DNA from: Bongovirus reindeer
Taxonomy: Duplodnaviria; Heunggongvirae; Uroviricota; Caudoviricetes; Vilmaviridae
Direction: 5' to 3' (one strand)
Length of the DNA stretch: 64,000 nucleotides
Virus record (IMG/VR): IMGVR_UViG_2974717242_000001
Span: 18,357 to 82,356 of that record
The position numbers and the translations under genes are program-made. The notes under the pieces are model-generated. The model was not told where the DNA came from and did no database searches. It was given only the letters and a program-made list of their open reading frames with translations. This document shows, piece after piece, positions 19,637 through 58,316 of this stretch (position 1 is the stretch's first letter; the number at the start of each line of letters is the position of its first letter).

Positions 19637-20103
19637 TTTCAGAATGGGTATCTCTTTAGAGAAGGAAGTATCTAATAAAATCCCACCACGTCCCCCGGCT
19701 GGGGGACGCTGCTCACGTACCGTAGGGGGTAGTCGCAACACATCCGTGTTGCTCCGGTCGCGCTCACTGCGTTCGCACTGTCCTTTTATGACCTTAGCGG
19801 GGCTCTGACCTGCGATTACAGGAAGCCGCGCACGCGACCTGCGGTTTTGCACGACTCGGCAAGCTGCAACCAGGAAAACTCTCAGAAAATTCTCAGAATC
19901 AAGCTGGGAGTTTGTGGGATTACAGGGAGCCGCTACACTAGACTCTGCGTGGGCTCGCGAGAGGTTGGTATTCCCTTCCCCCTCAGCGAGCGCGGCACCG
20001 AAGCTCACGACTGGCCAGGTGCCCCTCCCCTGGGGGTCGTGTCCCAGGGGAGCCCAAGTCGATCTCCTGTAATCACCCTGAGCCCATTGCCACACTATGT
20101 GGC

Positions 20104-20454
20104 GTGAAAAACGACTTCGGCCAGGACATCACCATCGGGTCCATCGTGGGCCTCGGAATCCGCTCCGGAGACGGCAGCGAGCAGCGCGTCGGCATCGTGC
20201 TGGAACTCTTCCAAGCCGACACGTGGCACGGCAAGCCTGAGTGGAAAGCCAAGTGCGCCTGGTGGATCCCACGCGGAAAGTACGACCGCGCCACCATGTC
20301 CTATGTCGGCAAGGTCATGATCTCCAACCAGAAGTTCCGATTCTTCCTCCTCGATGAGGCCAGCCTCGACCCCAACATCCTCCAACAGCTGGACGACGCC
20401 TACACCAAGTACATGCTCGACACGAAGCAGGCCAGTGAGTTCATCCCCAGCTGA
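20104..20454 (+). CDS. hypothetical protein (first rightward early gene)
   Basis: 116 aa, GTG start with no clear RBS (possibly leaderless). Three stoperator-like sites lie within 300 bp upstream. Confidence 0.5.
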   Translation: MKNDFGQDITIGSIVGLGIRSGDGSEQRVGIVLELFQADTWHGKPEWKAKCAWWIPRGKYDRATMSYVGKVMISNQKFRFFLLDEASLDPNILQQLDDAYTKYMLDTKQASEFIPS

Positions 20455-20476
20455 AGTACTCACAGACCGCAACCGA

Positions 20477-20698
20477 ATGCTGGAGTTGCTGTGGGAGATG
20501 GACAACGAGCTGAGAAGCTGGCATGCCAGTGGCACGTGGAAAAGTGGGCAAACCGGCGACCAACTCGCTGCCATCTACAAAAAGATGGACCAACGCCACA
20601 TACTTGCACAGGAGTTGCGGGAGATTGGGTGTGCCCCATGGGATTTCCATCCCCGCCGCGATAACAGCTGGCTAGTCGGCCCCAGAAGTAGGGCCTGA
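20477..20698 (+). CDS. hypothetical protein
   Basis: 73 aa from internal ATG of track ORF 20354-20698. The upstream part overlaps the previous gene. Confidence 0.4.
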   Translation: MLELLWEMDNELRSWHASGTWKSGQTGDQLAAIYKKMDQRHILAQELREIGCAPWDFHPRRDNSWLVGPRSRA

Positions 20699-20714
20699 CC
20701 AGCGATTACAGAAC

Positions 20715-20734
20715 CGTTGTACCTTGGTACAACG
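20715..20734. promoter_or_regulatory. 20-bp perfect palindrome CGTTGTACC-TT-GGTACAACG abutting start codon
   Basis: 9-bp inverted repeat immediately 5' of ATG 20735 and 3' of a stoperator-like site. Confidence 0.4.
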
Positions 20735-21061
20735 ATGGGTACAAACAAGCTGAAGCGTTTCGCGCGCAAGCACAACGCGGTCCTCACCGACGATCCGGAC
20801 GGACTGCTCTCAGCCCTGCAGATCACCAAACGCCTTGTCACCGAGGCGAACAAGGACGGCGCACCACTCTCCGTGGCATCTGCCCTTGATCAGGCGCTCA
20901 TCATGGCAGCGCCCAAGGATACCGTCCGGACCTGGTGGTCTGCCCTCCGCGTCATCATCCGCCACAACGAGCCGGGGAAGTCGAACCTGGCCGTACTCGC
21001 GGACGCAATTTCCGACCAGGGCAAGGTCAATGCCCGCATCAAGAAAAGGATTGCCGCATGA
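20735..21061 (+). CDS. hypothetical protein
   Basis: 108 aa, basic N-terminus KLKRFARKHN. Confidence 0.5.
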   Translation: MGTNKLKRFARKHNAVLTDDPDGLLSALQITKRLVTEANKDGAPLSVASALDQALIMAAPKDTVRTWWSALRVIIRHNEPGKSNLAVLADAISDQGKVNARIKKRIAA

Positions 21062-21231
21062 CCGGAGTCACCACACTACTCGTCATCCTGTTCTTCATCC
21101 TGAAGCTCGTCGGCGTCAACCCCATCGATGACTGGTCCTGGTGGATGGTGTTCTCGCCGTGGCTCGTTGAGCTGGGCATCGCCGTCGTCGCTGGCGTCAT
21201 CCTCGGCATCGTCCGCATCTTCTCGGACTGA
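21058..21231 (+). CDS. small membrane protein (2 TM)
   Basis: ATGA overlap. 57 aa: MTGVTTLLVILFFILKLVGV...IAVVAGVILGIVRIF. Confidence 0.5.
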   Translation: MTGVTTLLVILFFILKLVGVNPIDDWSWWMVFSPWLVELGIAVVAGVILGIVRIFSD

Positions 21232-21313
21232 GCATCCCCACCTACCCGATTTCTCCAGCCTGGGCGGCAGTCATCGCCGTCTGCGCCTACCTCTACATGC
21301 GATTGGTTGACTG

Positions 21314-22054
21314 ATGAGCACTGACACGAATGTCCTCTTCGCTTCCGCTGAGACTCCGTACGTCTCACGGATCCCCAATGGGATTGGGCCCGAACTGGCT
21401 GCCGCTCTCGTCGCCGCCCAGGCCGAGTTCGGGGCCGTCGCAAAGGGCACCGCAAACCCTTTTTTCAAGAGCAAGTACGCCGACCTCCCGGCCGTCAAGG
21501 CTGAAGCACAGCCGGTCCTGGCCAAGCACGGCCTGGCCGTCACCCAGCACCCCGGCTACACGGTGATCGACGGCAAGATCCACGACACCCTCACCACGAA
21601 GGTCGTGCACACCAGTGGGCAGGCCGACGAGTCGACCATGATCCTGCGCCCCGTCAAGTCCGACCCGCAGGCCCAGGGATCCGCCATCACCTACGCCAAG
21701 CGGTACGCGTTCATGGCTGTGCTGGGCCTGGTGGCCGACGAAGACGACGACGGCAACGCAGCATCCGGCCGCAGCAAGGCACCGGCGCGCAACAAGCCTG
21801 CCGCCAAGGGCAACCCGAACGGCGAAGGCCTCGGCAACCCTGAGGTGGCGAAGGTCATCAACCGCGTGAAGGCGGCGATCAAGTCAGCGGGCAAGGCCCC
21901 GAAGGATGCACAGAACTTCTTCGCCGAGCAGTACCCGAACGGCGGGTCGCTGATCGCGTCGACTGATGTGGCGGCGCTGACGGCGGTCGCTGAGCACTTC
22001 GAGGCCCTCGCCAATGCTGCAGGTGCCCTCGGCGGCACCGAGGTCAGCGAGTGA
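21314..22054 (+). CDS. single-strand annealing protein (ERF-like recombinase)
   Basis: 246 aa. ITYAKRYAF motif, acidic and Gly-rich C-terminal tail. Followed by a PD-(D/E)XK exonuclease gene. Confidence 0.55.
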   Translation: MSTDTNVLFASAETPYVSRIPNGIGPELAAALVAAQAEFGAVAKGTANPFFKSKYADLPAVKAEAQPVLAKHGLAVTQHPGYTVIDGKIHDTLTTKVVHTSGQADESTMILRPVKSDPQAQGSAITYAKRYAFMAVLGLVADEDDDGNAASGRSKAPARNKPAAKGNPNGEGLGNPEVAKVINRVKAAIKSAGKAPKDAQNFFAEQYPNGGSLIASTDVAALTAVAEHFEALANAAGALGGTEVSE

Positions 22055-22209
22055 GGTTCCTCGCGGGCCTGTTGTTCATCATCGCTGGCGGGCTGTCAGT
22101 GATGGCGGTGCGCACCATCAGCACGGACGACCCACCTCCCGAGGTGGTTCCGTACATCATCGGTGGCCTGCTGGCCGGTGCAGGGTTCGTCTTGGCGTTG
22201 GCCGACTGA
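22051..22209 (+). CDS. small membrane protein (52 aa, below track cutoff)
   Basis: GTGA overlap with SSAP stop. VRFLAGLLFIIAGGLSV...IIGGLLAGAGFVLALAD. Confidence 0.4.
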   Translation: MRFLAGLLFIIAGGLSVMAVRTISTDDPPPEVVPYIIGGLLAGAGFVLALAD

Positions 22210-22329
22210 TGTCCGTGGATCTCGCAGGCCTCATCGTCTGCCTCATCTTCCTCATTCTGATGTTCTACTGACCTTAGAAGGTGTCCCATTACCGACTGGA
22301 GCATTCCGCGCGACAAGTATGGACGGCCC

Positions 22330-23190
22330 ATGCTGTTCCCCCCAGAGGGTGGGAATCGGGTCGCCTACTCGCGGTGCTCCACGCTGGCCAAGGACATCGA
22401 CAAGGCCAGTGATGGGCTGTTCGCTTATTACCAAGCGAACGCAATGCTCGGTCTCGCGGCAAACCCATCGCTCATGTCCCGCGTCAAGGCGATCCTCGCC
22501 AAGGGCGGCAACTGGGATCGCAATAAGGGTGAGCTGAAAGAGATCGCGAAGAACGCCGAAATCATCGGAGGGTCGCAGAACAAGGCTGACCGTGGAACGA
22601 GCATTCATGACTTCGCCGAGGCGGTGGAGCTGGACACCCTCGATTGGAGCCTGGTCCCTGAGGACCTAAAGGGTGCAGTGGATGGATACCACAAGTATGT
22701 GGCATCGAGTCCTCATATCAAGTTCGTTGGCCGGGAGCTGTTTCTTGCTGTCAACGTCCCCATGAAGACGCCTACCGGCAACGCCTTCGTTCTCCGCGCT
22801 GCCGGTTCCGCAGATCGGATTGTCGAGATCGACGGCAAGCGGTACATGGCCGACATCAAGACCGGCCGTGACGATCAGTACCGGATGGGCGTGTCTGGCC
22901 AGCTAGCTCTCTACACCGAGGGGCAGCTGTACCAGGATTCGGTGGTTCGCCAGAACATCGACTGGGCTGAGTGGTATCCGAACGCTGACGGCAAGGCCGA
23001 ATTCGCCTCGCACGAATGCGATTATGAGGAGGCCGTCATGCTGCATTGCCCTCAGCAGCCCGATGACTGGGGGAGGTGGCAGTGGAAGGTTCTGCTGGTT
23101 CCGCTGGAGCGTGGTCGCCAGATCATCCGGTGTGGCCAGTGGGCCCGCAAGCTGCGTTACGTTCCCGCGTTCCGGGAGGTGCGACTGTGA
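22330..23190 (+). CDS. PD-(D/E)XK exonuclease (RecB/Cas4-like)
   Basis: 286 aa. GTSIHDFAE ... IVEIDGKRYMADIKTGR matches D-x(n)-E/D-x-K nuclease core. Partner of upstream SSAP. Confidence 0.65.
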   Translation: MLFPPEGGNRVAYSRCSTLAKDIDKASDGLFAYYQANAMLGLAANPSLMSRVKAILAKGGNWDRNKGELKEIAKNAEIIGGSQNKADRGTSIHDFAEAVELDTLDWSLVPEDLKGAVDGYHKYVASSPHIKFVGRELFLAVNVPMKTPTGNAFVLRAAGSADRIVEIDGKRYMADIKTGRDDQYRMGVSGQLALYTEGQLYQDSVVRQNIDWAEWYPNADGKAEFASHECDYEEAVMLHCPQQPDDWGRWQWKVLLVPLERGRQIIRCGQWARKLRYVPAFREVRL

Positions 23191-23501
23191 CAGCGATTGA
23201 GCAGCAGCTGACAGCCATCCTGGTGGCCGACGAAGGCGACGCCGTCTACTGCCTGCGGACGGAGCCCGATGTGGAGATCGGCGGCTTCAAGCATGTCGAT
23301 GTCGAAGAGGGCGAGGACCGGCGCTGGGTGCGTGGCGACATGGTCATCGTGCAGCACGTCGAGTCGGGTCGGTACTTCGCGTTCGACTACGACCACGGCC
23401 TGACTGAGTATCAGGATGACGAGGTGTTCCCCGATTCGGTGCGGGAGGTCGAGAAGACCACCAAGACGGTCGAGGTGACGATCTGGAAGCGGGTTAAGTG
23501 A
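23187..23501 (+). CDS. hypothetical protein
   Basis: GTGA overlap start. Track ORF starts further upstream at 23076. Confidence 0.5.
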   Translation: MTAIEQQLTAILVADEGDAVYCLRTEPDVEIGGFKHVDVEEGEDRRWVRGDMVIVQHVESGRYFAFDYDHGLTEYQDDEVFPDSVREVEKTTKTVEVTIWKRVK

Positions 23502-24091
23502 GCGGTGAGCACACCGGGTGCACCGATTCGGACGACACCACCTATGTGGTGTGTGAGGACGAGGACGGCACCGATGTCATCCGGTATTTCTTCCGTGGCT
23601 ACATTGATGACTCGACGGTTTCCCCACTGATCGAGACGTTCTACTACTGGGATGGGCATTACCCCGGTTCCCGGTGGGAGATCGACATCAATTCACCTGG
23701 TGGGGAGATCTTCCCGTCTATCGCGGTGTTCGGCGCTCTGCGTAGGTACAGCCAGCGAATGGGTGGGGCCCACCACATCACCACCCGCGCGTCTGGCTTG
23801 GCCGCTTCTGGTGGCGAGTTGATGCTGCAGGCTGGCGATCATCGTGTCGCTGGCCTGATGGACGCGATCATGATCCATGAACCGTTGTGCTCGTACGAGG
23901 ATCGCGCGGTCACGCAGATTCGTGACGATCTGGCTCGTGCTGAAGAGTGGACTCGCCGACTAGCGAAGGTTCACGCGGAACGGTCCAGCATCGATGAGGA
24001 AACGTTCCTCGCGAAGCTCAGGCTGGGGGACTGGTGGATGTATGCGGATGAGGCGCTGGAGCTGGGCTTCATTGATGAGGTGCTGCCGTGA
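23498..24091 (+). CDS. ClpP-like serine peptidase (S14 family)
   Basis: GTGA overlap. INSPGGEI and GLAASGGELM motifs correspond to ClpP SPGG and catalytic Ser region. 197 aa. Confidence 0.65.
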   Translation: MSGEHTGCTDSDDTTYVVCEDEDGTDVIRYFFRGYIDDSTVSPLIETFYYWDGHYPGSRWEIDINSPGGEIFPSIAVFGALRRYSQRMGGAHHITTRASGLAASGGELMLQAGDHRVAGLMDAIMIHEPLCSYEDRAVTQIRDDLARAEEWTRRLAKVHAERSSIDEETFLAKLRLGDWWMYADEALELGFIDEVLP

Positions 24092-24303
24092 GCTGCCGCT
24101 GCATCAATCGCACACCGCCGACGCAGACTCAGTATGGCGTCAAGCTCATCGAGTCGGGCCGGATTGAATGGCCGTACAACGGCGAGCTGGGCACCAAGGA
24201 GTGGGCGTTTGAACTTGCGACCCGCTACAACTATGTCCACAACAAGCGCGTTGCGGTACCTGTGGAACGCGAGGTTGGGGTCATTATTCAGGAGTCTTGG
24301 TGA
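24088..24303 (+). CDS. hypothetical protein
   Basis: GTGA overlap, 71 aa. Confidence 0.5.
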   Translation: MSCRCINRTPPTQTQYGVKLIESGRIEWPYNGELGTKEWAFELATRYNYVHNKRVAVPVEREVGVIIQESW

Positions 24304-24689
24304 GCGGCTGGGATGACGACCAGGATTGGGTGCCAACAGATCTCACGCCGATGGCGTTGGATCGCCTGCTGGACCGCAATTCCTATCTGATGGACAAGTG
24401 GGACCGCATGATGTCCTGGCATATGGCCCAGCGGAAGTGGCGGCACGACGAGTTCGTCAAAGCTGAAGCGAAGGCCGTCATGAAGTACGCGGGACCGGCC
24501 ACGAAGGCGAAGTTCGCTGCGGCCGAGGATCCCGATGTGATCATGGCGCGGACCCACCTGTCAATCGCTGAGGCGCAGCTCGGGATTTGTGAGCGGCGGT
24601 TGCACGCGTTGGAGCGTGAAGCATTCAACTTGGGGATGCGAAACAAGGTGCTGGACAAGGTGTTCAACAACGGAGGCGGGAGCTACTAG
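24300..24689 (+). CDS. hypothetical protein
   Basis: GTGA overlap (GTG at 24300), 129 aa, coiled-coil C-terminus. Confidence 0.5.
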   Translation: MSGWDDDQDWVPTDLTPMALDRLLDRNSYLMDKWDRMMSWHMAQRKWRHDEFVKAEAKAVMKYAGPATKAKFAAAEDPDVIMARTHLSIAEAQLGICERRLHALEREAFNLGMRNKVLDKVFNNGGGSY

Positions 24690-26230: not shown

Positions 26231-26633
26231 AAAACGCTGCAGGGCAATTGTTCTCGAACGATGCGGAGGGTTGTGTGAGAGGTGTGGACGCGGTGGACCC
26301 GTCACCATGCACCACCGGAAGAAACGAGGACAAGGTGGGCCCTGGGAACCCTGGAACATCGTCGCGCTGTGCGGACATGGAACAACTGGCTGCCATGGCT
26401 GGGTGGAAGCTAACCCCCTGGCAGCTCACGCTACTGGCTGGCATGTTCGACCGTGGGAAGACCCACGTGACATCCGCCCCGTCCCAATATGGGAGACGGG
26501 GCTTCGAGGCGGATCTGGTGATCCTGGACGAGGCTCTGACCAGCAAGAACGCTTCCTGTATTCACCCTCCGAGGCGTCTTATTCTGAGTACGTCGAAGTG
26601 AGCGATCACTGGTTTGACATTGACCCCGAATGA
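26223..26633 (+). CDS. HNH endonuclease
   Basis: CERCG ... MHHRKKRGQGGPWEPWNIVALCGHGTTGCHGW is a Cys-His HNH box. 136 aa. Confidence 0.6.
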   Translation: MNEKRCRAIVLERCGGLCERCGRGGPVTMHHRKKRGQGGPWEPWNIVALCGHGTTGCHGWVEANPLAAHATGWHVRPWEDPRDIRPVPIWETGLRGGSGDPGRGSDQQERFLYSPSEASYSEYVEVSDHWFDIDPE

Positions 26634-26643
26634 AACGAGAGAC

Positions 26644-29446: not shown

Positions 29447-29875
29447 TTGCTAGAAGTGGGCCGTAGCCGTAAGTCTGCAAAGGCGGCAGGTGCATCGTTT
29501 GAGCGCCTGATCGCGGACGGACTCCGAGAAGCACTGGGCGACAACAATATTCAGCGCGCACCACGCTGGGGAAGTGTCGACAAGGGTGACATCGTGAACG
29601 TCCGCATCGACGGCCACGATCTAGTTATACAGACTAAGGACGTTGCTCGTCTCGACCTTCCAAAGGGCGTGGGAGACGCTAAGCTACAAGCCGTGAATGC
29701 AGGGGCTCTCGCGGGCCTGTTCATTCACAAACGCAAAGGGACCACCGACCCAATGAAGCAATGGGTTAGCTGTACTGTTGCGGAGCTAGTTGCACTGATC
29801 ACCAAGGTTCCGGTACACGCCGGGGCTGTGGAAGGGAATGAAGGGAGGGCGGATGACCGCCACTCTGGAGAATGA
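29447..29875 (+). CDS. Holliday junction resolvase, archaeal Hjc-type PD-(D/E)XK
   Basis: N-terminus KSAKAAGASFERLIADGL ... RAPRWGSVDKGDIVNV parallels Hjc KGSAVERxxV ... RAPASG ... D. RBS GGGGAG. Confidence 0.5.
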   Translation: MLEVGRSRKSAKAAGASFERLIADGLREALGDNNIQRAPRWGSVDKGDIVNVRIDGHDLVIQTKDVARLDLPKGVGDAKLQAVNAGALAGLFIHKRKGTTDPMKQWVSCTVAELVALITKVPVHAGAVEGNEGRADDRHSGE

Positions 29876-30479
29876 CACCGACTTCGACTGGCGCACCCGT
29901 TCGGTGTGCTTGACCGAGGACTTCGACATGACGTTCGTGGACGTTGATGACCTGATCGACCAGGGCGTCGAACGCGAAGACGCCATCGACATCATCAAGC
30001 AGCACGAGGTTGCCGCGAAGTCTGTCTGCGAGCGCTGCCCGGTCGTCAAGCAGTGCCTGAGCCAGGCCATGGAAGATGACGAGCAGTTCGGCGTGTGGGG
30101 CGGCAAGAACCCGGCCGAACGCCACCAGGAGCGTCACATCTGGCTGCAGATCCGTGGAATCCCCTCCCTGCCCACCGACTTGGGGCTGGTGACCGATCCG
30201 GATGCGCTCAGCTCGAACGCCGCCGCGAACGCCAAGCTGACCCGGCGCAACGAGCGGGCCCGCATCGCACGCGACCTTCTGCTGCTGCAGCCAGCGGACT
30301 GGACCAACACCACCCGGTCCAACGGCACCCACACCCGTGAGCAGTACCTCACGGTGATGGACATGATCCTGGCGAATCCGTCGCAGCCAGCGGAGGTCAT
30401 CGCCAACCGGATCGGCCGTCGCGGCGAGTACATCAACTCGATGCTCCGTGAGGTCTGCAAGGCGTTCGAAATCAACTAG
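29853..30479 (+). CDS. WhiB-family protein with C-terminal extension
   Basis: Strong RBS GAAGGGAGGG. Cys pattern C-x31-CERCPVVKQC plus hallmark GVWGG turn. 208 aa. Confidence 0.65.
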   Translation: MTATLENDTDFDWRTRSVCLTEDFDMTFVDVDDLIDQGVEREDAIDIIKQHEVAAKSVCERCPVVKQCLSQAMEDDEQFGVWGGKNPAERHQERHIWLQIRGIPSLPTDLGLVTDPDALSSNAAANAKLTRRNERARIARDLLLLQPADWTNTTRSNGTHTREQYLTVMDMILANPSQPAEVIANRIGRRGEYINSMLREVCKAFEIN

Positions 30480-30491
30480 TCCGACCGCCTG

Positions 30492-30565: not shown

Positions 30566-30574
30566 TGATACAAT
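30566..30574 (+). promoter_or_regulatory. candidate extended -10 promoter TGATACAAT
   Basis: TGnTACAAT match between terminator and next gene block. A stoperator-like site lies 125 bp downstream. Confidence 0.3.
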
Positions 30575-30739
30575 GAGGGTGCCACGAGTTGAGCCTCGCT
30601 CCTCTGGTACCCCCGTGGATGATTTCTGTGACGCCGTCCGACGCGCCTGCCCACGGGGGTTCTGCTTTTTCTGAGCCTGTCTGACCTGGGAAAAGCTTCC
30701 TGTAATCACCCTTTTTCGCGCCGTACCGTAATAGGCGAT

Positions 30740-30988
30740 ATGAGCGAACAATGTTGGGGTGGCACTCTTTCGACGGATGGCCATGTCCAGGTTCTCCAGC
30801 AGGAACTGGCCCAGGTCCGCTACGAGCGTGATCTGGTGGCACGTCAGCTTGGGGCCGTTCAGCGCCTGATCAACCGCTGGATGCAGGACGCTGGGCCAGG
30901 CACGCGCATGGAGCAAGTCTATGGGCCCCAGACGATTTCGGTGGCGTTCATGCATCGGGCGATCAACGAGGTTATCGCTGATGCGTGA
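30740..30988 (+). CDS. hypothetical protein
   Basis: 82 aa. Confidence 0.5.
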   Translation: MSEQCWGGTLSTDGHVQVLQQELAQVRYERDLVARQLGAVQRLINRWMQDAGPGTRMEQVYGPQTISVAFMHRAINEVIADA

Positions 30989-32567: not shown

Positions 32568-32675
32568 CCGAGTACTACGTGCGCACAGAAGGCCGAGTCG
32601 CCGTCCCCGGCCTGGAAACCTAGCTTCCTGTAATCACTCACAGGGGCCACATACGTTGAGAGACATGGAGAAACG

Positions 32676-37776: not shown

Positions 37777-37929
37777 ATTCTCCTGTAATCACTCTCGATG
37801 AAGCTTTAATCTATTTCATGTCCGGTTCAAGAAGGACCGGATGCGGTACACCGGAGGGGCTGGTTCCCAAATTCCAAGCCCGGTTCCTCCACTGGGACTC
37901 GACAGAGTTGAGGCTGAAGAGTCCCACGT

Positions 37930-38081: not shown

Positions 38082-38451
38082 GGGGCTGTACTGGTTTTCG
38101 ATTACGAACCGAGTCCATGGAAGCGTGCCGGGAAGATACGCCCGTAACAGTTCAACCTTAATAAGCGCCGCATTTGTTGACGCTGATTACGCCGTAGCTG
38201 CGTGATCCGGTGGGGTAGAACGGTTTACCCGTTCCGTCTACCAATCCACCGTCGTCAATACGGGGACCGCAGGTACACCCAAGCATCTGCCAAACTGCTA
38301 GGGCCGTCCGGTCACGAGGACGTTAATCCCGTGTTCTTGCCCGTGGCAGATTGTGTCGCTATGCGAGGGGTGAAAATACAGAGGCACTACGCACGTAGAA
38401 GAATGAGTACAGAGAACGTAAGACGCGGGTTCGATTCCCGCCAGCTCCACC
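38082..38451 (+). ncRNA. ssrA: tmRNA (ssrA)
   Basis: 5' GGGGCTGTACTGGTTTTCGATTAC matches the tmRNA 5' consensus GGGGCUGAUUCUGGAUUCGAC. 3' end GACGCGGGTTCGATTCCCGCCAGCTCCACC is near-identical to the E. coli ssrA 3' end. G3-U70 in acceptor. Internal tag frame 38167-38205 encodes AAFVDADYAVAA-stop. Confidence 0.8.
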
Positions 38452-38692
38452 TGGGCCTGGGTTCTGGGTTCGAATCCCAGTGTGATTGAAGTGGATTCGC
38501 GGTCTGCAGCCGCGACTACGCTCCGGTGGGTAGCTCCCAGCCGCGTTCGCATGGTGTAATTGGCAAGCGCAGGGCCTGTTAAACCGGTTTCCCATCTCCG
38601 ACCAAAGGATGGGTGGTGGAAGACGAACTGGGTCTTAGGCAACCCCGTTCAGTCCTCGGCGTCCCAGCCCGCCGTCACCCGACTGGGCTAAG

Positions 38693-38767: not shown

Positions 38768-39678
38768 CGAGTGGAAGGTCGTCGGTTCGATTCCGACAGC
38801 GGAACAAACGGGCCGCTTAGCTCAGTGGCAGAGCATCCACGTTAACAACATTTGGGGCATGGCCCATAAGCTGAGGTGACTCAGTGAAAGGTGATGGTGA
38901 CATCTCGCCGCCCGCAAGGGTTCCCCATGCAATCCAAACCTTAAGCAGTTCCCGTTGGGGGCTGCCAGGTTGCGAGTTCATCGTGTGACCAACGCCAAGT
39001 GGTGAGGTCGGGTTCGGTACGTGCCGAAGGGCCAGCGAGTAACGGATGAGCAGCCTGTGGAATGGAAGGAACTTAAGTCAGAGCCTTGGCGGGTGACGGC
39101 GGGTTCCATGACCGATCTCGCGTGGACGACGGTTCACAATGCGGTTGAGGGAGAGAGTGAGTAGCCCGCCAGGCCAAAGCTCGAGAGGCGTGAAGCATTC
39201 TGTGCCCCAAAAGGGTTCGGAACTTCATGGGGAAGCACGTCTCTAGTCACAACTACCATGCTATTGGTTAGCAAACTGTCATTGAACACAGTTGTAGAGG
39301 TTCGACTCCTCGCAAAGCAAAAGCCTTTCCCTGCCGATGAGCAAAAGCGCCTTAATCCCCGACTGGGAGCAGAATCGGGGCAGGACGAGCCCGCAAGGCG
39401 GATCCTGTTTGTAGACAAGTAGTGCAGCCATGGGACGGCCATCCTAACGGCGAATCAAAAGTCGCAGAGTAGCTGTCGGTATGACGAGTGGTTCACGTTA
39501 CGGACCAGGCGTTGCACGTACACAGGGGACTGTGTGGACAAGTCGGGAATCCATAATCCGACGAAAGCGTGTGGTCGAGCGGTTTAGTCTCTAGCCCGCT
39601 CAACAATCGGAATGTGCGTCTAATGGCAAGGCGTGGGGGCACCCAGATGCAGGTTCGAATCCTGACTTTCCGGCATTT

Positions 39679-40016: not shown

Positions 40017-40090
40017 CAGTCTGAGGTGTAAGTGGTTTGCATGGCCGGTTTGGATCCGGGCGGTTCGAGGTTCGAGTCCTCGCAGACTGA
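40017..40090 (+). tRNA. tRNA-Pro(TGG)
   Basis: Perfect acceptor CAGTCTG/CAGACTG (C1 start), anticodon loop TTTGGAT, perfect T-arm CGAGGTTCGAGTCCTCG. Confidence 0.5.
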
Positions 40091-40244
40091 CGTACCCGTT
40101 GGTGGATCGGATAACCACCCGACCTGATCTCAGGTTCCGTTAAGCAAATGAGATCGTGCCCCGTCGCCGTGGGATATGTCAGAAAAATCACGGGATCCCA
40201 TTGACCCGAGGGATTACGGCCTGATCAGCCGATAGGGTCAACCT

Positions 40245-43590: not shown

Positions 43591-43712
43591 ATGCCCTGAC
43601 CTGCGAATACAGGACGGGCACATACTTCTTGCCGTGAGTCCGATTGTGTTCCTCATCATCGTCGCGTTGGTGGGGCTCTCGCTCGCAATTCTTTGTCACT
43701 AGAAGGGATTTC

Positions 43713-46847: not shown

Positions 46848-46990
46848 CGTGTTGGTGTCGGGCATGTCGCCCTGATGTGTGGTGGATGGTCGTCTGTCGC
46901 CGGTGTGGTTCGAAGAACTGCCCAGCTGCAGGCGACCATCGCCTTTCATGCCGTCTACCTGCGATTACAGAACGATGGGAGGCTTCCGCC

Positions 46991-47701
46991 ATGAGCTACT
47001 ACTGGTTCAACAGCAACCCCGTGGAACTGGGGCCATGCGTCGACTTGACCACTGATCAGCGCAAGTTGATTGAGGCGACTCCGAACTTGCGTCGGGCTTC
47101 GTTGAACAATGCGGTGCTGTTTGGTGGGCCGCTGCTGCGGATCCTGTTGGCTCACGCTCCGCTGACCGGCAAGCACAGGCATGTGTTCGTGGACACGAAG
47201 GTGTCGATGTTGATGCCTGGCTGGTGGCCTGCGATCCCTGGTTGGCATACCGATGGTGTTCCGCGCCAGATCAGGGTTCCCGAGGGCTCCGACATGGCTC
47301 CTTACAGCCCGACGGGTAACGGTCAGCCGTCACTGCGGAAGCAGGCCGACATGCACCTTGGGGGTTACCGGCCGATCTATCACACGATCCATGTCGGCAA
47401 CGACTGCCCCACCGAGTTCATTGATGGCCAGCTGCGGATGCCCATCGATCACGATGAGGATGATCAGATGTACGCGGAGATGACCCGCAAGATCAACGAG
47501 TGCTCGACGCTGCGGAAGCTGAAGGCCGTTGAGGGCCAGTGGATGACGTGGGACTGGTTCAATATTCACCAGGCGACGCAGGCCACTGAGCGGGGTTGGC
47601 GGCTGTTGATTCGTGTGACCGAGTCGGATGTGCCGCCCGCGAGTTCGAATTTCATTCGGGTGCAGAACCAGGTGTACACACCGCAGGAGTTCGGTTGGTG
47701 A
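46991..47701 (+). CDS. hypothetical protein (possible Fe/2OG-oxygenase-like, HxD...H)
   Basis: RBS GGGAGG before ATG 46991. WHTDG ... IYHTIH. Stoperator-like site 20 bp upstream. Confidence 0.45.
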   Translation: MSYYWFNSNPVELGPCVDLTTDQRKLIEATPNLRRASLNNAVLFGGPLLRILLAHAPLTGKHRHVFVDTKVSMLMPGWWPAIPGWHTDGVPRQIRVPEGSDMAPYSPTGNGQPSLRKQADMHLGGYRPIYHTIHVGNDCPTEFIDGQLRMPIDHDEDDQMYAEMTRKINECSTLRKLKAVEGQWMTWDWFNIHQATQATERGWRLLIRVTESDVPPASSNFIRVQNQVYTPQEFGW

Positions 47702-52961: not shown

Positions 52962-53015
52962 AAAAAAGGGGAGGCCGGATGCAGCCCCTCGTCTGCACCC
53001 GGCCTCCCTCTTCTT
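52962..53015. terminator. bidirectional intrinsic terminator
   Basis: A6 - GGGGAGGCCGG / CCGGCCTCCC - T-rich. 10-bp GC stem. Confidence 0.65.
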
Positions 53016-53265: not shown

Positions 53266-53465
53266 CAGTGACCGCCTACCGTCTTGAGGTGGCCACCGAT
53301 GGCGATGATCAGATCTAGCTGCTGATCTGGGGTGAGGGCCACGCCGTCGCGGTCGGCCGGGTTCGCACCCTCAGGCGCGATCTCAATGACGACATCACGA
53401 CCTGCGGAGATGAGGTTGAGCCGGTCCCCGTACACGTCTACGCAGGTGTACAGGTCTCCGCTCAT
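53265..53465 (-). CDS. hypothetical protein
   Basis: 66 aa, ATGA overlap. Confidence 0.5.
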   Translation of the reverse strand: MSGDLYTCVDVYGDRLNLISAGRDVVIEIAPEGANPADRDGVALTPDQQLDLIIAIGGHLKTVGGH

Positions 53466-53986
53466 GCAGCCACCTCACCCTTGAGGGCCTTCACCTGCGC
53501 CTTGGGCTTTGCTGGTGCCCGCTTGCGTGCGGGGCGCACAGCTGCCGCAGCTTCCCTTCGTGCCCGCTTGCCGATGGTCAGAGCGAGCAGCGCGATGGTG
53601 GAGAACGCCACGGACAGGTCCACGACGAGTGGCCACAGCCAGGCCACCCACACGCTCATGCCGCCTTGCTGCACTGCCAGCTCGAACAGTGACACGAAGG
53701 ACAGCACCAGGGCCACGACCGCGATTGCTGCGGTGAGGCCGAGGGCCACCCTGAAGAACATGCCGTCGATTTGGGTGCGGACCATGAGACTGAGCCCGTG
53801 TGTGGCGAGAGCCAGTACGACGGGCGGCACGAGGGCCATGCATGCCGCCACCCACGCGTTGTTGTTGTGGCTGTTGAACAGTGCGTGGGCGACGTTGCCG
53901 ACGATAGAGACGACGCTGGATCCGATGAGCCAGCGCCAGTAGAACGTGACTGCTTCTTTCTTGTACGCCGCGAGTGTGGTGGACAA
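53462..53986 (-). CDS. integral membrane protein (4-5 TM)
   Basis: 174 aa, multiple hydrophobic helices, basic C-terminal tail. TTG start after GAAGGGAA. Confidence 0.55.
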   Translation of the reverse strand: MSTTLAAYKKEAVTFYWRWLIGSSVVSIVGNVAHALFNSHNNNAWVAACMALVPPVVLALATHGLSLMVRTQIDGMFFRVALGLTAAIAVVALVLSFVSLFELAVQQGGMSVWVAWLWPLVVDLSVAFSTIALLALTIGKRARREAAAAVRPARKRAPAKPKAQVKALKGEVAA

Positions 53987-54012
53987 TGTGTGTTATTCCC
54001 TTCTGTCGTGTT

Positions 54013-54243
54013 TTAGATGGTCAGGTACTGCGTGATGTGGGGGACGCGCTCAATGGCTGCTGTCGCAGCCATGTAGTTGCCCTCGGCGCACTTCTTGGCC
54101 GCCGTGCGGATGAGCGACACAGCCATCTCGAGTTTGTGGATGTGGTCGATGGCCTCGATGTGCGACGAAACCAACTCTCGCTCAACAACAGTCAGCAGCG
54201 GAGCGTTGTCCTGAATGGTGAGCAGTTCCCGCTTGGTGATCAC
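54013..54243 (-). CDS. hypothetical protein
   Basis: GTG start after AAGAAGGGAA, 76 aa. Confidence 0.5.
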   Translation of the reverse strand: MITKRELLTIQDNAPLLTVVERELVSSHIEAIDHIHKLEMAVSLIRTAAKKCAEGNYMAATAAIERVPHITQYLTI

Positions 54244-54347
54244 AGATTGGTTCCCTTCTTGACCGGACGGAATGCCTCGTAACCGATGTAGGCGAGGTAG
54301 ATGCCCCAGATGGCCAGCGCTAGGAACTGGCCGAGTGTGAGCTGCAT
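54240..54347 (-). CDS. tiny membrane peptide (35 aa)
   Basis: RBS GAGAAGGGAAAAC-ATG. MQLTLGQFLALAIWGIYLAYIGYEAFRPVKKGTNL. GTGA overlap with downstream gene. Confidence 0.4.
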   Translation of the reverse strand: MQLTLGQFLALAIWGIYLAYIGYEAFRPVKKGTNL

Positions 54348-54430
54348 GTTTTCCCTTCTCGTGAATTTGCCGTGAATGTAGGCCTGTCCTGTATTTGCAG
54401 GTCAGCCCATGTTTTGGCCCAGAAAGCCAG

Positions 54431-54460
54431 AAGGCCCCCCGACATGAGCCGGGGGGCCTT
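54431..54460. terminator. intrinsic terminator hairpin
   Basis: AAGGCCCCCCG-acatgag-CGGGGGGCCTT. Perfect 11-bp stem. Confidence 0.6.
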
Positions 54461-54475
54461 CCTACCTACTGGGAA

Positions 54476-55000
54476 CTAGGTGGGGTTCTTCAGGTAATCG
54501 ATCCATTTGATGCAGCTGCGGCGCACCTTCTGCCGCATCTGCTCGGGGGTGCGCTTCAAGCAGTGACTACACATGCGGTAACCGCGTCCCTGTACCTCGC
54601 CGACAGTGAGCGCCGAGAGGTGAACGAGCGGCCGCACTGGTGTGCGCAGCGTGATGGTTCGGCAGAACGCCGTGGTGTGCACAGCGCCCGAGGGGACGCG
54701 GACGTACAGGTTGAACTCGCCGCCGCGCAGCCAGGCCCGTTCAGCATTGCTGAGCATGTCGGCTAGGCGTTGCCCTCGGGGCCTCATCGCGTCGGCACGC
54801 TCACGTTGCCCACGCTGCAGGTAGTTGGTGTACTGTTTGCGGAAATCGCGGATCTCATCGAAAAGCGCAATTAACTCCGATGCTACTTCTATCAACTCCT
54901 CTTCGCTCATGGTGTGTCGGACTTGTGCATGTGGCAACCACCCTCCCTTTTTGGCCGTTGCTAGCTTGAACCTGGGGGGTGATTTTACTTGTGCCGTCAT
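54476..55000 (-). CDS. hypothetical protein in isolated transcription unit
   Basis: 174 aa. RBS GAAGGGAA at start, terminator hairpins on both sides (54431-54460 and 55073-55106), stoperator-like site 54387-54405 just downstream. C-terminal CSHC. Confidence 0.55.
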   Translation of the reverse strand: MTAQVKSPPRFKLATAKKGGWLPHAQVRHTMSEEELIEVASELIALFDEIRDFRKQYTNYLQRGQRERADAMRPRGQRLADMLSNAERAWLRGGEFNLYVRVPSGAVHTTAFCRTITLRTPVRPLVHLSALTVGEVQGRGYRMCSHCLKRTPEQMRQKVRRSCIKWIDYLKNPT

Positions 55001-55072
55001 GATTCCCTTCGAGCCTTCCAGCAGGTCCGTGACTCCTGCCTAGACCGTTGTACGTTGCTAAACACAGCAGAA

Positions 55073-55106
55073 GGGCACCGGATCGGGCTGACCCGGTGCC
55101 CTTCCT
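55073..55106. terminator. intrinsic terminator hairpin
   Basis: AAGGGCACCGG ... CCGGTGCCCTT. Confidence 0.5.
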
Positions 55107-55112
55107 CCCTAT

Positions 55113-55361
55113 TCAGTGCACGTCGACCTGTTGATCGTGGTAGCCCATGCGGTGCAATAGTTCATCGACACTGCCCTGTAGGTTGCTGCGGGCGAATGTG
55201 GCGAAGTCGGCTCGGGCTTCGCTGGCGTTGTCAAGCCCGAAGTCAATGGCCCACGCAGCAAGGTCCATCCCCGTGATGGTGACGGTGAATGTGAGCTGGT
55301 CGTCATCGTTCACGTGGCAGACGTGTTCCTGCCCGCAGTGTGGGCATGTGGTCTTGGCCAT
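55113..55361 (-). CDS. small Cys/His-rich protein
   Basis: RBS GGAGGG. MAKTTCPHCGQEHVCH, 82 aa. Confidence 0.5.
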   Translation of the reverse strand: MAKTTCPHCGQEHVCHVNDDDQLTFTVTITGMDLAAWAIDFGLDNASEARADFATFARSNLQGSVDELLHRMGYHDQQVDVH

Positions 55362-55364
55362 GTG

Positions 55365-55598
55365 TCAGACCCTCCCGGCTCGCATGCTGCTGGCGACGAT
55401 GTCGAGCACGTCGTCCCGGCTGAGCCCCAGGTCGGCATTGAGCTGGTCAACCGTCTCCTCCGCCTCACCCAGGGTGCGGTGCAGGCCGAACACGGGGGTC
55501 CAGCCAGCCTCGTCCTCGACCACCTTGGCGATCTCGTACCCCTGCTGGGCTCGGTTGAAGTACGACTCGTTCGCGTAGTAGCACGTCCTCTTGTCCAT
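55365..55598 (-). CDS. hypothetical protein
   Basis: RBS GAGAAGGGGAAACC-ATG. Track ORF extended to 55643. Confidence 0.5.
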   Translation of the reverse strand: MDKRTCYYANESYFNRAQQGYEIAKVVEDEAGWTPVFGLHRTLGEAEETVDQLNADLGLSRDDVLDIVASSMRAGRV

Positions 55599-55676
55599 GG
55601 TTTCCCCTTCTCTTGTGTAGCTCTGAATTGAGCAGGGGCGCAACGGATCCAGTGACCCGTTGAACCCCCTCCCGAT

Positions 55677-55859
55677 TCAGCGAATTCTACTCACACATTC
55701 CGGTGGGTAGCCCATGCGCTTGAACTCCGCTTGCGCGGCCTCGAGGACGACGGTTTTGATGTCGTCCCGCGCCGACCGTGGACCTGCCAGGTTGTAGCTG
55801 TCCGCGTACTCCCACAGGTCGAGGTCGACGGCCAGGTTGACCACTACCCGGCCATGCAT
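55677..55859 (-). CDS. hypothetical protein
   Basis: 60 aa from ATG 55859. Confidence 0.4.
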   Translation of the reverse strand: MHGRVVVNLAVDLDLWEYADSYNLAGPRSARDDIKTVVLEAAQAEFKRMGYPPECVSRIR

Positions 55860-55864
55860 AGGCC

Positions 55865-56140
55865 TCACCGGCCCCGCTGAATGAGGATGGTGCCCGACTT
55901 CAGCCCGTCGACCAGCTCGGCCACCTTGAACCAGTGCTCAAAGGTGGCTGAGACGCGCACCCACTTGTCGCGGAAGTCGCCCGTGCCCCAGTGGGCGAAC
56001 CCTGGGCCCTGGCCCTCCGTGAAGGTGCGCAGCACACCGACGAACTCGGAGCCACCGCGTTCAATGTGGATGAGGTAACCCTTCTCGACGGCGTCCATCA
56101 GTTCACCCATGACCTTCACGTCTGCGAGCGTTGTGTCCAT
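55865..56140 (-). CDS. hypothetical protein
   Basis: RBS GAGAAGGGAATAGAGAT-ATG. Track ORF extended to 56212. Confidence 0.5.
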   Translation of the reverse strand: MDTTLADVKVMGELMDAVEKGYLIHIERGGSEFVGVLRTFTEGQGPGFAHWGTGDFRDKWVRVSATFEHWFKVAELVDGLKSGTILIQRGR

Positions 56141-56237
56141 ATCTCTATTCCCTTCTCGTGTGTTTGCAGCTGAATACAGCAGGGGCGCAGCAGATCTCGC
56201 GACCTGCTGCACCCCCTCCCCATTCAGTTGTCAGTGC

Positions 56238-56520
56238 TCACGCGCGTCCACGCGCATCCTCCTCGGCCTCATCAGCGGCCCGACCACTCGCGTAGTACGC
56301 CATCCAGTCGGTCAGGTCACGCACAAGATCCGGCACCTTCTGGGCGAGAATCTCGATGGGCTCGCCAACGTTCTGGGGCCTCCCGCGCTCGATGATTCGG
56401 CCATTGTCAGCCACACGCTCAACGGTGAGCGTGCGCTGAATGATCAGCCGGTCGAGTCGACCCCCGACCGTCCTCCTCTGGTTCCACGTTGTATGCGGTG
56501 ATCTTCCGGTCGAACGCCAT
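56238..56520 (-). pseudogene. frameshifted small gene (G5 homopolymer)
   Basis: ATG 56520 with canonical leader RBS. Frame stops after 33 aa. The +1 frame is open for 62 further protein-like aa. Removing one G from run 56461-56465 restores a 95-aa ORF. Confidence 0.4.
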
Positions 56521-56610
56521 GTTCTTCATTCCCTTCTGTCGTGTTGTGGTGCTGAGTACACCAAAGGGGGCACCGACCAATGCCGATGTCCCCGAGTTGC
56601 GCTCAGAACC

Positions 56611-56679
56611 CTAGAACTGTTTGAACAGCAGGATGATGGTCGCCAGCACTACAGCCAGTGACCAGTAAGCAGCCGTCAT
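56611..56679 (-). CDS. tiny hydrophobic peptide (22 aa)
   Basis: RBS GAAGGAGGG, ATGA overlap with upstream gene stop. MTAAYWSLAVVLATIILLFKQF. Confidence 0.3.
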   Translation of the reverse strand: MTAAYWSLAVVLATIILLFKQF

Positions 56680-57029
56680 ACAGCCCTCCTTCGTTCCCAG
56701 CCGCGCCGCGCCCACTGCGTTTGAGACCACTTGTTGCGCATGATGGTCTCGGCCATGCGTTGCAGCTGGCTCGGGTTCGCGTAGTACTCCTGAGAGTTCA
56801 ACGCGTCAGCGAGACCCGCGTGATAGCCACGGTTGTGGTCCACCACGTCGAACCCCATGCCGTCAGCCGTGAATGGGATGCCCTCCCAGTCCGGTGGCCA
56901 CATGATGACCGTCTCCCAGTAGTCGAACGACCCACCGAGGTACGCGGTGGACACTTGGACCACGCCGACCCCGTCAATGACGAAGCCTTGCATGACTTGA
57001 CGGTTCGGCCGAAACATGGTGTCACTCAT
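56676..57029 (-). CDS. hypothetical protein
   Basis: Start at MSDTMF with leader RBS. Track ORF extended to 57137. Confidence 0.5.
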   Translation of the reverse strand: MSDTMFRPNRQVMQGFVIDGVGVVQVSTAYLGGSFDYWETVIMWPPDWEGIPFTADGMGFDVVDHNRGYHAGLADALNSQEYYANPSQLQRMAETIMRNKWSQTQWARRGWERRRAV

Positions 57030-57126
57030 CAGTTTCTCTTCCCTTCTCGTGTTGGTGTCCGTCTGGCCACCAAGGAAAGGCACCACAGGTTGCCCTGTGA
57101 TGCCCTCCCCAAGCTGCCAGCCAGCT

Positions 57127-58200
57127 TTATGCCGCAACCAGCTGCGGCATGTCGAGCACCTCGCTCAGGGCCCGCAGCGTGGCCCCGTCGCTCGCCGCGA
57201 TGTCGTTGCGGATGGCACGGTCGTAGACACGTTCCAGCCGCGACGTTCCGCGCACCGAGCGTCCGTGATGCTCGTAGGTGTTGACCGCCTGCACGACACC
57301 GAAAGCGGTGCCCGCGAACGGTGCCGACATGGGATCCACCGTGTAATAGTGGTCGAGCGCCTCACGGCGATTCTCGGCCTTGGTGATCTTGGCCTTGCTG
57401 CTGTCGGCGGGTGCGGGCGGCTCGATGATGTCGAGCACCTTCAGCCACTGCTTGCGGCTCACCTCGATCTGTGCCAGCTCGCGGGTGAAGTCCTGCATCT
57501 CGTGCGCGGACTTGTCCAGGATCGACAGTGCCTCACGGACACCTGCCACCACCTGGGCCCCCATGCTGTTGACGGTGTGCTTGACCTTGTACTGACGGCC
57601 TGCCGCCTTGGCGTCACGCCGGATGACCTGAAACATGTTGTCGCAGATCAACATCCGATTGAACGCCGAATACGTCGTCGAGATCGAGCCGTCGAGCGAC
57701 GTTTGGGCGAGCAGGAACGGCCAAAACTTGAGGCCGGTCTTCTCGTCGTGCATGGTCTCGTCAAGACCGATCTCGACTGCCGCCTGTGCGCCGTTCTTCA
57801 GCGTCAGTGCGGACAGGATCGAAAGCCGGTCCTGCAGAATGTTGCTCACGTTCCGGATGAGCCACTCCTTGTAGTCGTGGATCCGGTAGGACTTCGTGTG
57901 CCGCCCCAACTCCGTGTAGTCATCGGAGCGCACAATTCCCTGTGCGCCCTCGGTGATGACCACACGGGCCGGTCGCCCATCGGGCAGGACAATCACACCC
58001 GGCTCGCCGAGCTGGTCGACGCCGACCGGGACGAAATTGCCCGTGGGCACACTGATGGCCTCCCAGTTGAACAGGCGGCGCTCCACCTCAGCGACAGGGA
58101 TGGGGCCCTCGTAGGTCGGCAGGGTGCCGTCCGTCTGGCCGATCCACCGGTCGCGCTTGGCGGTGTTGCCGATCAATGCGTGAGCGATCTTGGTTCCCAT
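57127..58200 (-). CDS. hypothetical protein (357 aa, largest gene of leftward block)
   Basis: Leader RBS CACGAAGAAGGGAAGAGAACTA-ATG. No recognisable catalytic motif. Confidence 0.6.
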   Translation of the reverse strand: MGTKIAHALIGNTAKRDRWIGQTDGTLPTYEGPIPVAEVERRLFNWEAISVPTGNFVPVGVDQLGEPGVIVLPDGRPARVVITEGAQGIVRSDDYTELGRHTKSYRIHDYKEWLIRNVSNILQDRLSILSALTLKNGAQAAVEIGLDETMHDEKTGLKFWPFLLAQTSLDGSISTTYSAFNRMLICDNMFQVIRRDAKAAGRQYKVKHTVNSMGAQVVAGVREALSILDKSAHEMQDFTRELAQIEVSRKQWLKVLDIIEPPAPADSSKAKITKAENRREALDHYYTVDPMSAPFAGTAFGVVQAVNTYEHHGRSVRGTSRLERVYDRAIRNDIAASDGATLRALSEVLDMPQLVAA

Positions 58201-58316
58201 TAGTTCTCTTCCCTTCTTCGTGTGTTACCCGTTTGTGTAACGGGCATCTGTACCGTCTGAGTACAGCAGAGCGCACAGGGTGATTACAGGGAACCAACCT
58301 GTGCGCTCCTCCCTAC

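Follow-up and report, generated by a model that had tools for sequence, protein, structure and literature searches.

A short asymmetric motif at predicted promoters of cluster M mycobacteriophages and a candidate phage-encoded reader

Cluster A mycobacteriophages carry two to three dozen copies of the stoperator, and in phage L5 the operator of the early promoter overlaps the promoter. Reportedly, these copies mostly face the same direction and have no tie to -10 elements. Stoperators are short asymmetric sites, repeated genome-wide in intergenic DNA and specific to one phage cluster (PMC5559632). Here, we describe a motif, written GTGATTACAGGA, in Mycobacterium phage Reindeer (MT658803.1 / NC_053516.1; genus Bongovirus, cluster M), based on a window of 64,000 nucleotides (nt) that is 100% identical to this genome, covers its bases 18357-82356 and reaches its right end; positions given below are those of the window. 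Like the cluster A stoperators, the motif is short, asymmetric, mostly intergenic and specific to one cluster. It differs from them in its sequence, in its copy number (14 compared with dozens), in occurring in two orientations instead of one and in being tied to -10-like hexamers. Further, no repressor resembling L5 gp71 could be detected by Pfam among 70 Reindeer proteins.

In the middle promoters of phage T4, a MotA box near -30 replaces the -35 element, while AsiA remodels region 4 of sigma-70. One of the two promoter arrangements predicted in Reindeer, from now on referred to as class B, shares this architecture, namely a sigma-70-type -10 element, no -35 element and a phage-specific box centred at about -32.5. 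Like AsiA, the candidate reader of the motif, gp74, would act on sigma region 4. The Reindeer case differs in its actinobacterial host and in a second, inverted arrangement (class A), and no homologues of MotA or AsiA were found in Pfam scans of the same 70 proteins.

The closest system with regard to gp74 is the WhiA/WhiB pair. WhiB docks on region 4 of sigma-A and bridges to WhiA, whose long helix and C-terminal helix-turn-helix recognise GACAC, an asymmetric motif, much as sigma region 4 recognises a -35 element (PMC10243135; PDB 8DY9). The N-terminal domain of WhiA links WhiB to the DNA-reading domain, and the two proteins jointly activate the leaderless sepX promoter of Streptomyces (PMC10243135). 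gp74 appears to contain both kinds of domain, and four predicted Reindeer promoters have the spacing of leaderless promoters such as sepX. However, the domains of gp74 are covalently linked in a single chain and the homing-endonuclease-like N-terminal domain of WhiA is missing. It should also be noted that GACAC is found upstream of the -35 element, whereas GTGATTACAGGA overlaps either the -35 position (class B, -38 to -27) or the spacer (class A, -30 to -19).

Repeats have been described in cluster M genomes before. Four conserved repeats, CR1-CR4, are credited to Pope et al. 2014, with CR3 and CR4 located between genes of the rightmost region (PMC7953290). A k-mer census of Reindeer returned GTGATTACAGGA, the right-arm sequence ACACACGGAGAAGGGAA and tRNA arms as the only prominent repeats. 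ACACACGGAGAAGGGAA(AA) is found in 8-9 copies right before the start codons of right-arm genes (- strand, 58731-61928 and 54349-54360), includes the Shine-Dalgarno sequence, is unrelated to GTGATTACAGGA and probably represents CR3/CR4. A copy of GGGATTACAGAT at 58952, considered as a possible member of the motif family, was rejected, as it belongs to the ribosome-binding repeat of gene 149. Because ACACACGGAGAAGGGAA fits CR3/CR4 and GTGATTACAGGA is the only other non-tRNA repeat family, the motif is, by elimination from PMC7953290 and the census, very probably CR1 and/or CR2, and thus a repeat that is already known. As would be expected of CR1/CR2, the motif recurs at syntenic positions and with comparable copy numbers in the cluster M genomes examined.

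Enrichment and conservation of the motif

The conserved unit of the motif is the 12-mer G[T/C]GATTACAGGA, of which 13 copies could be identified in the window and one in the left arm, resulting in a total of 14. Exact matches to GATTACAGG number 8 compared with 0.16 expected, a count reached in 0 of 100 shuffles, and the 17-mer form with at most 3 mismatches was found 6 times (0.14 expected). A sequence-only reading of this DNA had proposed a repeated motif, and the repeat is indeed real and far above chance, with all of the listed coordinates correct to within 1-2 bases. Three copies were absent from that list, specifically those at 19568-19576 and 26554-26565 and at 3843-3854 of the phage record. 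A weight matrix trained on sites from the phages Bongo and Rey alone finds every Reindeer site, 12 of the 14 exceeding 12 bits; genome-wide, 15 positions score above 12 bits, compared with 2.0 in shuffles. Non-coding DNA makes up 13% of the genome and contains 13 of the 14 sites, in agreement with the earlier description of a short, asymmetric, multi-copy and mostly intergenic motif. Three sites lie immediately 3' of terminator hairpins, while no copies are present in the structural operon of about 29 kb. A proposed half-site relative at 40211 (GGGATTACGG) does not show the promoter geometry described below and probably occurs by chance. TGACCTGCG was tried as a stand-alone genome-wide motif and was not enriched (33 matches, 26 expected).

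Copies of the motif are found at the same gene junctions in Reindeer, Bongo (subcluster M1), Rey (M2) and Auspice. The genomes of Bongo and PegLeg are about 80% identical to that of Reindeer, with Rey (Reyvirus) being more distant. Exact GATTACAGG occurs 9 times in Bongo, 11 times in Rey and 8 times in Reindeer, the latter also containing variant copies, and 8 copies of GATTACAGGA are present in the Auspice segment examined. In alignments of orthologous regions the motif is invariant, whereas the adjoining spacers and flanks diverge completely. Among viral contigs, the 16-mer TGACCTGCGATTACAG is repeated only in cluster M genomes. Metagenomic viral contigs outside of cluster M that contain the 16-mer carry at most one copy of GATTACAGGA, probably by chance, and were not considered further.

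Two predicted promoter geometries

All offsets of 0-38 nt on both strands of 13 sites were scanned for nAnnnT, the minimal mycobacterial -10 pattern, which has a background frequency of 0.040 in non-coding DNA. Only two offsets gave matches at 3 or more of the 13 sites: N7 after GATTACAGG on the motif strand (5 sites, P = 1e-4) and N16 after CCTGTAATC on the opposite strand (6 sites, P = 6e-6). The two sets of sites do not overlap and coincide with two sequence classes. nAnnnT is present at the class-specific offset in 11 of the 13 scanned sites and at N15 in one more, and the 14th site has TATTCT.

Class B sites consist of TCCTGTAATCAC-N14 followed by TAnnnT or TGn-nAnnnT, reading toward the downstream gene, and are located at genes 10, 51, 52, 69, 75 and 80, the tRNA cluster and gene 147. 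Seven sites of this class are clear, and the one at 19812 is a variant. If the hexamer is placed at -12 to -7, the motif falls on the -35 position, where nothing resembling TTGACA is found. The three class B hexamers that depart from TAnnnT all carry the extended -10 TGn (TGcGAAGCT, TGcCACACT and TGcTGTACT). Class A sites have the form (c)TGACCT-GCGATTACAGGA-N6-hexamer, which places the motif, inverted, within the spacer. The five sites of this class are found at gene 54, in the region before gene 117, at genes 122 and 138 and, in degenerate form, at 19916. A -35-like cTGACC usually lies just upstream of the class A motif, at 19 nt from the -10 hexamer, compared with 16-18 nt for a -35 element resembling TTGACA. 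At genes 10, 51, 52 and 122, 6-7 nt separate the hexamer from the annotated start codon, a spacing that fits leaderless mycobacterial transcripts. Hexamers vary between phages with the A at position 2 and the T at position 6 being kept, as illustrated by the sets GAGGCT / GAAGCT / GAGGGT and TACCTT / TACCTT / GACAAT. Two other ways of reading the sites were discarded, specifically a common register of both classes via the pseudo-palindrome CCTGCGATTACAGG, which would imply an offset of 4 bp, and TAATCA within the motif as the -10 element itself, as its final T is missing and there is no consistent -35.

At two class B promoters, those of genes 69 and 75, a TGACCWGS element is located 8-9 nt upstream of the motif and is kept in Bongo and Rey. 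At gene 69 it reads TGACCAGC (26537-26544, 9 nt upstream) and at gene 75 TGACCTGG (30682-30689, 8 nt upstream); the latter had been taken for a half-site relative of the motif at 30681 and is instead a separate conserved element. TGACC resembles a -35 element or the GACAC motif of WhiA, and TGACCWGS could be a second protein-binding site.

Since the motif lies at fixed distances from -10-like hexamers, the sites overlap the -35 element or the spacer of predicted promoters, and they would represent operators or promoter elements of about 14 predicted promoters, not elongation blocks. That the motif is a transcription factor site embedded in promoters is, in our assessment, highly probable. This also bears on the likeness to stoperators that had been proposed from the sequence. 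The likeness stands for a short, asymmetric, multi-copy, intergenic and group-specific motif that is plausibly bound by a phage-encoded protein, as the cluster A sites are. It does not extend to the arrangement of the sites: stoperators are dispersed in transcription units mostly in one orientation, whereas the Reindeer sites have two opposite orientations and stand at N14 or N6 from a -10-like hexamer. If the sites were true stoperators, a bound repressor would block RNA polymerase elongating from upstream and the association with promoters would be incidental. Such a role would suit an asymmetric, multi-copy, mostly intergenic motif, and the three sites right after terminators are places where read-through might need to be blocked. 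However, the two orientations relative to transcription, the fixed distance to the hexamer, the copy number of only 14 with none in the structural operon and the reported layout of the cluster A sites all argue against it, and we consider this explanation very improbable.

A more distant relative shows which part of this arrangement is kept when the sequence changes. The gene order of contig ERR473314_60 (Logan, 79.6 kb) is that of cluster M (ERF, Clp, SSB, DnaB, WhiB, DnaQ-like, tRNAs), and GTGATTACAGGA is not found in the 20.6 kb of the contig examined. In place of CCTGTAATC(AC), the contig has a repeat of its own, (T)CCCGGTAGAC, at syntenic promoters (positions 242, 11340, 13229 and 16714, and 889-898 on the other strand). 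CCCGGTAGAC-N16-hexamer (TATTCT, TACCGT, TAGATT and TGcTTCTCT) precedes the homologues of gene 52, gene 75, the DnaQ gene and the tRNA cluster, while an inverted copy, GTCTACCGGA-N6-TAGGCT, followed by 6 nt and ATG, precedes the homologue of gene 54. Both geometries are therefore kept even though the sequence has changed (GATTACAGG compared with GTCTACCGG, 6/9 identical). Kept geometry with an altered sequence is the pattern expected of a site that co-evolves with a phage-encoded reader and is restricted to one exact position in the promoter.

The same observation argues against a host factor, that is, against a reading of the motif by a protein of Mycolicibacterium smegmatis alone, be it an alternative sigma factor or a transcription factor. 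A fixed position relative to the -10 hexamer and the lack of a sigma-A -35 element in class B would be compatible with such a factor. However, a sigma -35 element does not tolerate two orientations, the hexamers are of the sigma-A type (TAnnnT) and a different sequence at the same position in a related phage points to a co-evolving phage-encoded reader. In addition, the restriction of repeated TGACCTGCGATTACAG to cluster M genomes among viral contigs is not what a host-read site would suggest. A host factor is thus very unlikely.

A further variant may be present in a cluster-M-like prophage of Mycolicibacterium palauense (NVQF01000007.1), which encodes RtcB, MazG, a gene 122 homologue and a serine integrase. 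At 189-221, a terminator is followed by TCCTGTTTCAC-N16-TAATCT before the tRNA region. The motif was not found before the gene 122 homologue of this prophage. A second locus with a gene 122 homologue is not syntenic and was rejected as a relative.

gp74 and other candidate modes of action

The explanation we favour, if only tentatively and with slightly less than even confidence, is that the motif is recognised by a sequence-specific transcription factor encoded by the phage and is built into about 14 predicted sigma-A-type promoters of cluster M phages. These predicted promoters head both early operons, which diverge at genes 51 and 52, as well as the leftward operon of the left arm (gene 10), genes 54, 69, 75 and 80, the tRNA/tmRNA cluster and genes 117, 122, 138 and 147. 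Such a factor most likely defines an early/middle regulon, with activation and repression both possible.

The candidate for this factor is gp74, encoded by gene 74 (29853..30479, + strand), a protein of 208 residues annotated as a WhiB family transcription factor. Gene 74 lies in the operon that begins at the predicted class A promoter of gene 54. The WhiB domain spans residues 13-91 (Pfam PF02467, E = 6.8e-17), and C19, C59, C62, C68 and G80-V-W-G-G84 are invariant in 6 gp74 homologues. The protein extends C-terminally by about 115 residues containing a long helix and a helix-turn-helix domain (residues ~118-208). Modelled alone, this part consists of a long helix, a beta hairpin and a three-helix bundle (predicted local distance difference test (pLDDT) 89, predicted template modelling score (pTM) 0.78), and the predicted fold of residues 118-208 resembles the C-terminal domain of WhiA. 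A Foldseek search with this model agrees weakly (3hyi, E = 0.05), with local matches to sigma region 4 on -35 DNA, Lrp and TraR. The model of full-length gp74 is poor (pLDDT 58.6) and its fold search not significant. In a word-based search of limited sensitivity, the gp74 family was found only in cluster M phages and one relative (6 clusters in the searched database). The only remote homologue (39% identity) is encoded on ERR473314_60. The helix-turn-helix is nearly invariant in cluster M and differs in ERR473314_60, whose motif differs as well.

Apart from gp74, no repressor, helix-turn-helix or ribbon-helix-helix families were found by Pfam in the 70 proteins or by PHROGs in 10. Gene 139, a stand-alone unit adjoining a class A site, encodes nothing DNA-binding-like. 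The precise spacing, the fact that it persists where the sequence has changed, the lack of a -35 element in class B and the nature of gp74 itself are all consistent with gp74 being the reader of the motif, an assignment that is plausible but to be taken with reserve.

In the proposed mechanism, a protein would bind the motif and switch the regulon. The WhiB domain of gp74 would dock on region 4 of host sigma-A. At class B promoters the helix-turn-helix would then supply the missing -35 contact, resulting in activation, while at class A promoters gp74 bound to the inverted spacer site would obstruct the polymerase and early transcription would be shut off. The net effect would be an early-to-middle switch. 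In its full form, the proposal is that gp74 is a natural single-chain fusion of WhiB and a domain resembling the C-terminal domain of WhiA, which would reprogram the host housekeeping holoenzyme onto class B "middle" promoters and shut class A early promoters, with factor and site co-evolving, as suggested by the change from GATTACAGG to GTCTACCGG. This complete scheme is a speculative one and rather unlikely to hold in all its parts.

Several points weigh against the activator reading. The -10 elements and transcription starts assigned here are all predicted. The motif overlaps the -35 position or the spacer, which sigma region 4 or RNA polymerase would occupy, while in the solved WhiA/WhiB complex the WhiA motif is found upstream of the -35 element, and the position of the motif would suit a repressor at least as well as an activator. 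The motif is present in the first promoters of the early operons (genes 51 and 52), so that an activator encoded by these very operons would face a bootstrapping problem. The -10 elements (TAnnnT or TGn-extended) look sufficient by themselves, as in activator-independent promoters. The covariation of gp74 and motif is seen in one distant genome, in which any protein would have diverged, and the sigma-region-4/WhiA-like helix-turn-helix might instead read the separate TGACCWG elements. Lastly, cluster M phages are temperate and reportedly homoimmune across subclusters, so operators must exist, and an invariant motif is the obvious candidate.

The main alternative is that the motif may be the operator of the cluster M immunity repressor, a protein expressed from the prophage that would occupy the -35 or spacer face of each promoter at the 14 sites, silence the lytic regulon in lysogens and confer superinfection immunity. 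We regard this as a real possibility, if a somewhat doubtful one. In both arrangements the sites overlap the core promoter, and they occur at the first promoters of both divergent early operons and at that of the operon located upstream of the integrase. Between the lineages of Bongo (Bongovirus), Rey (Reyvirus) and Reindeer the motif does not vary despite a genome identity of only about 80%, and an invariant operator fits temperate phages with the homoimmunity noted above. The self-sufficient look of the -10 elements points in the same direction. Cluster A provides a precedent for an asymmetric repressor-bound site at many intergenic positions (PMC5559632). However, the Pfam and PHROGs scans described above returned no helix-turn-helix or repressor-like protein other than gp74, and no repressor is annotated in the Reindeer record or in a cluster M record from 2023. 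Exact spacing is also kept in ERR473314_60 despite the changed sequence, which simple steric occlusion need not require.

Individual sites, neighbouring features and significance

The left-arm copy (GTGATCACAGGA, record 3843-3854) lies in a divergent region outside the window and is a class B site of gene 10, the first gene of the left-arm leftward operon. Within the window, the divergent region between genes 51 and 52 had been credited with three copies in 480 bp. It contains four in 565 bp, because the exact copy at 19568-19576 had been missed. The latter belongs to the site at 19566..19577 (+, GTGATTACAGGA), a class B site for leftward gene 51 that has been kept in Bongo and Rey. Its - strand sequence is TCCTGTAATCAC-N14-GAAGCT (19551-19546, preceded by TGc), with 7 nt separating the hexamer from the ATG at 19538, which corresponds to leaderless spacing. 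The site at 19806..19823 (+) has the sequence TGACCT-GCGATTACAGGA without a -10 at N6 on the + strand, while on the - strand N15 is followed by TAAGGT (19796-19791), so that it looks like an "orphan" leftward promoter within the divergent region. It is a class B variant: Reindeer and Bongo have an N15 spacer here, while that of Rey is N14, and the equivalent Rey site reads GTGATTACAGGA, N14, TAGTGT. At 19916..19927 (+), the degenerate class A-like sequence GGGATTACAGGG is followed by N6 and TACACT (19934-19939), an "orphan" rightward predicted promoter upstream of gene 52; the hexamer at this offset is TACTAT in Bongo and TAAGGT in Rey. The fourth site, 20065..20076 (-), is of class B and reads TCCTGTAATCAC-N14-CACACT on the + strand (20091-20096, preceded by TGc), 7 nt before the GTG of gene 52 at 20104, again with leaderless spacing.

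The same region contains an AT-rich block of about 100 bp (GGTACCAAATACGTTAGGTAGTACCTAATTTCAGAATGGGTATC..., within 19580-19800) that is nearly invariant in Reindeer, Bongo and Rey, as well as conserved hairpins and the two predicted motif promoters without a gene directly downstream. Such features may point to small RNAs or to a replication/regulatory region; an Rfam scan of the divergent region returned no match.

The class A site of gene 54 (20696..20713, +) reads TGACCA-GCGATTACAGAA, N6, TACCTT (20720-20725), with 9 nt to the ATG at 20735. It is one of the copies described earlier as lying just before start codons, the other being that of gene 122 (46955..46972, +; CTACCT-GCGATTACAGAA, N6, GAGGCT at 46979-46984), a class A site with leaderless spacing whose hexamer is followed by 6 nt and the ATG at 46991; both placements were borne out. 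The class B site at 26554..26565 (-; + strand TCCTGTATTCAC-N14-TATTCT, hexamer 26580-26585) is located within the 3' end of gene 68, upstream of SSB gene 69 (start 26644), and its arrangement is identical in Bongo and Rey. For gene 75, a class B site at 30698..30709 (-; + strand TCCTGTAATCAC-N14-TACCGT, 30724-30729) is placed 10 nt before the ATG at 30740.

The region between genes 74 and 75 also encodes a probable small RNA (30566-30671, +) with an extended -10 TGaTACAAT (30566-30574). About 90 nt are strongly conserved in Bongo and Rey, ending in a hairpin (CCCCCGTGG...CCCACGGGGG) and a T-run, and the hairpin stem of Rey shows a compensatory G>A / C>T pair. There was no Rfam match to this RNA at gathering score.

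Further rightward, a class B site at 32626..32637 (-; + strand TCCTGTAATCAC-N14-TACGTT, 32652-32657) precedes the DnaQ-like gene 80 (start 32676). Another at 37781..37792 (-; + strand TCCTGTAATCAC-N14-TAATCT, 37807-37812) lies upstream of a cluster encoding tRNA-Trp, transfer-messenger RNA (tmRNA), GOLLD RNA and further tRNAs. This site directly follows a terminator, as had been stated, and so does the class A site at 43597..43614 (+; TGACCT-GCGAATACAGGA, N6, CATACT at 43621-43626) upstream of RtcB gene 117.

Three observations concern the annotation of the tRNA cluster. A full-length GOLLD RNA is present at 39183-39597 (+; Rfam RF02032, 206 bits, E = 9e-57), which is not annotated in the GenBank record, while the small coding sequence of gene 95 just upstream is. 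A tmRNA is located between tRNA-Trp and tRNA-Asn (38082-38452, +; Rfam RF00023, 95.8 bits), unannotated in the Reindeer record and annotated at the same place in Bongo and Rey. tRNA-Pro is listed twice with nearly the same coordinates (genes 98 and 99, 40017-40091), which looks like an annotation duplicate.

In the right arm, a scan with the standard sigma-70 consensus gave no match. A class A site at 54387..54404 (-; - strand TGACCT-GCAAATACAGGA, N6, TACATT at 54380-54375) follows the gene 139 terminator and precedes gene 138 (start 54347). The last site, at 58280..58291 (+, GTGATTACAGGG), is of class B with an atypical -10, reads CCCTGTAATCAC-N14-TGTACT on the - strand (58265-58260, preceded by TGc) and lies upstream of gene 147 (start 58200). 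A 1.5-kb stretch close to the right end of the genome (62213-63701) is free of genes, and copies of AAAACATGnnnTGACCTGCrGAAA are located at 62812, 62985, 63066 and 63886, the last within 63886-63912. TGACCTGC, the left half of class A sites, is also part of these right-end repeats, and CCAAAACATGGGCTGACCTGC precedes the site at 54387.

The motif marks essentially the whole non-structural transcription programme of the phage, including its unusually large tRNA/tmRNA/GOLLD cluster. Cluster M phages are temperate, yet the two records examined annotate no identifiable repressor; should the motif be an immunity operator, it would offer a direct route to the cluster M repressor. Should gp74 read the motif, this would represent a new, compact means by which a phage redirects the housekeeping RNA polymerase of mycobacteria, and gp74 as a sigma appropriator would be an actinobacterial counterpart of sigma appropriation in T4. 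WhiB and WhiA are both essential in M. tuberculosis (PMC10243135), and the gp74 fusion, if confirmed, would be a natural experiment on WhiB-WhiA cooperation.

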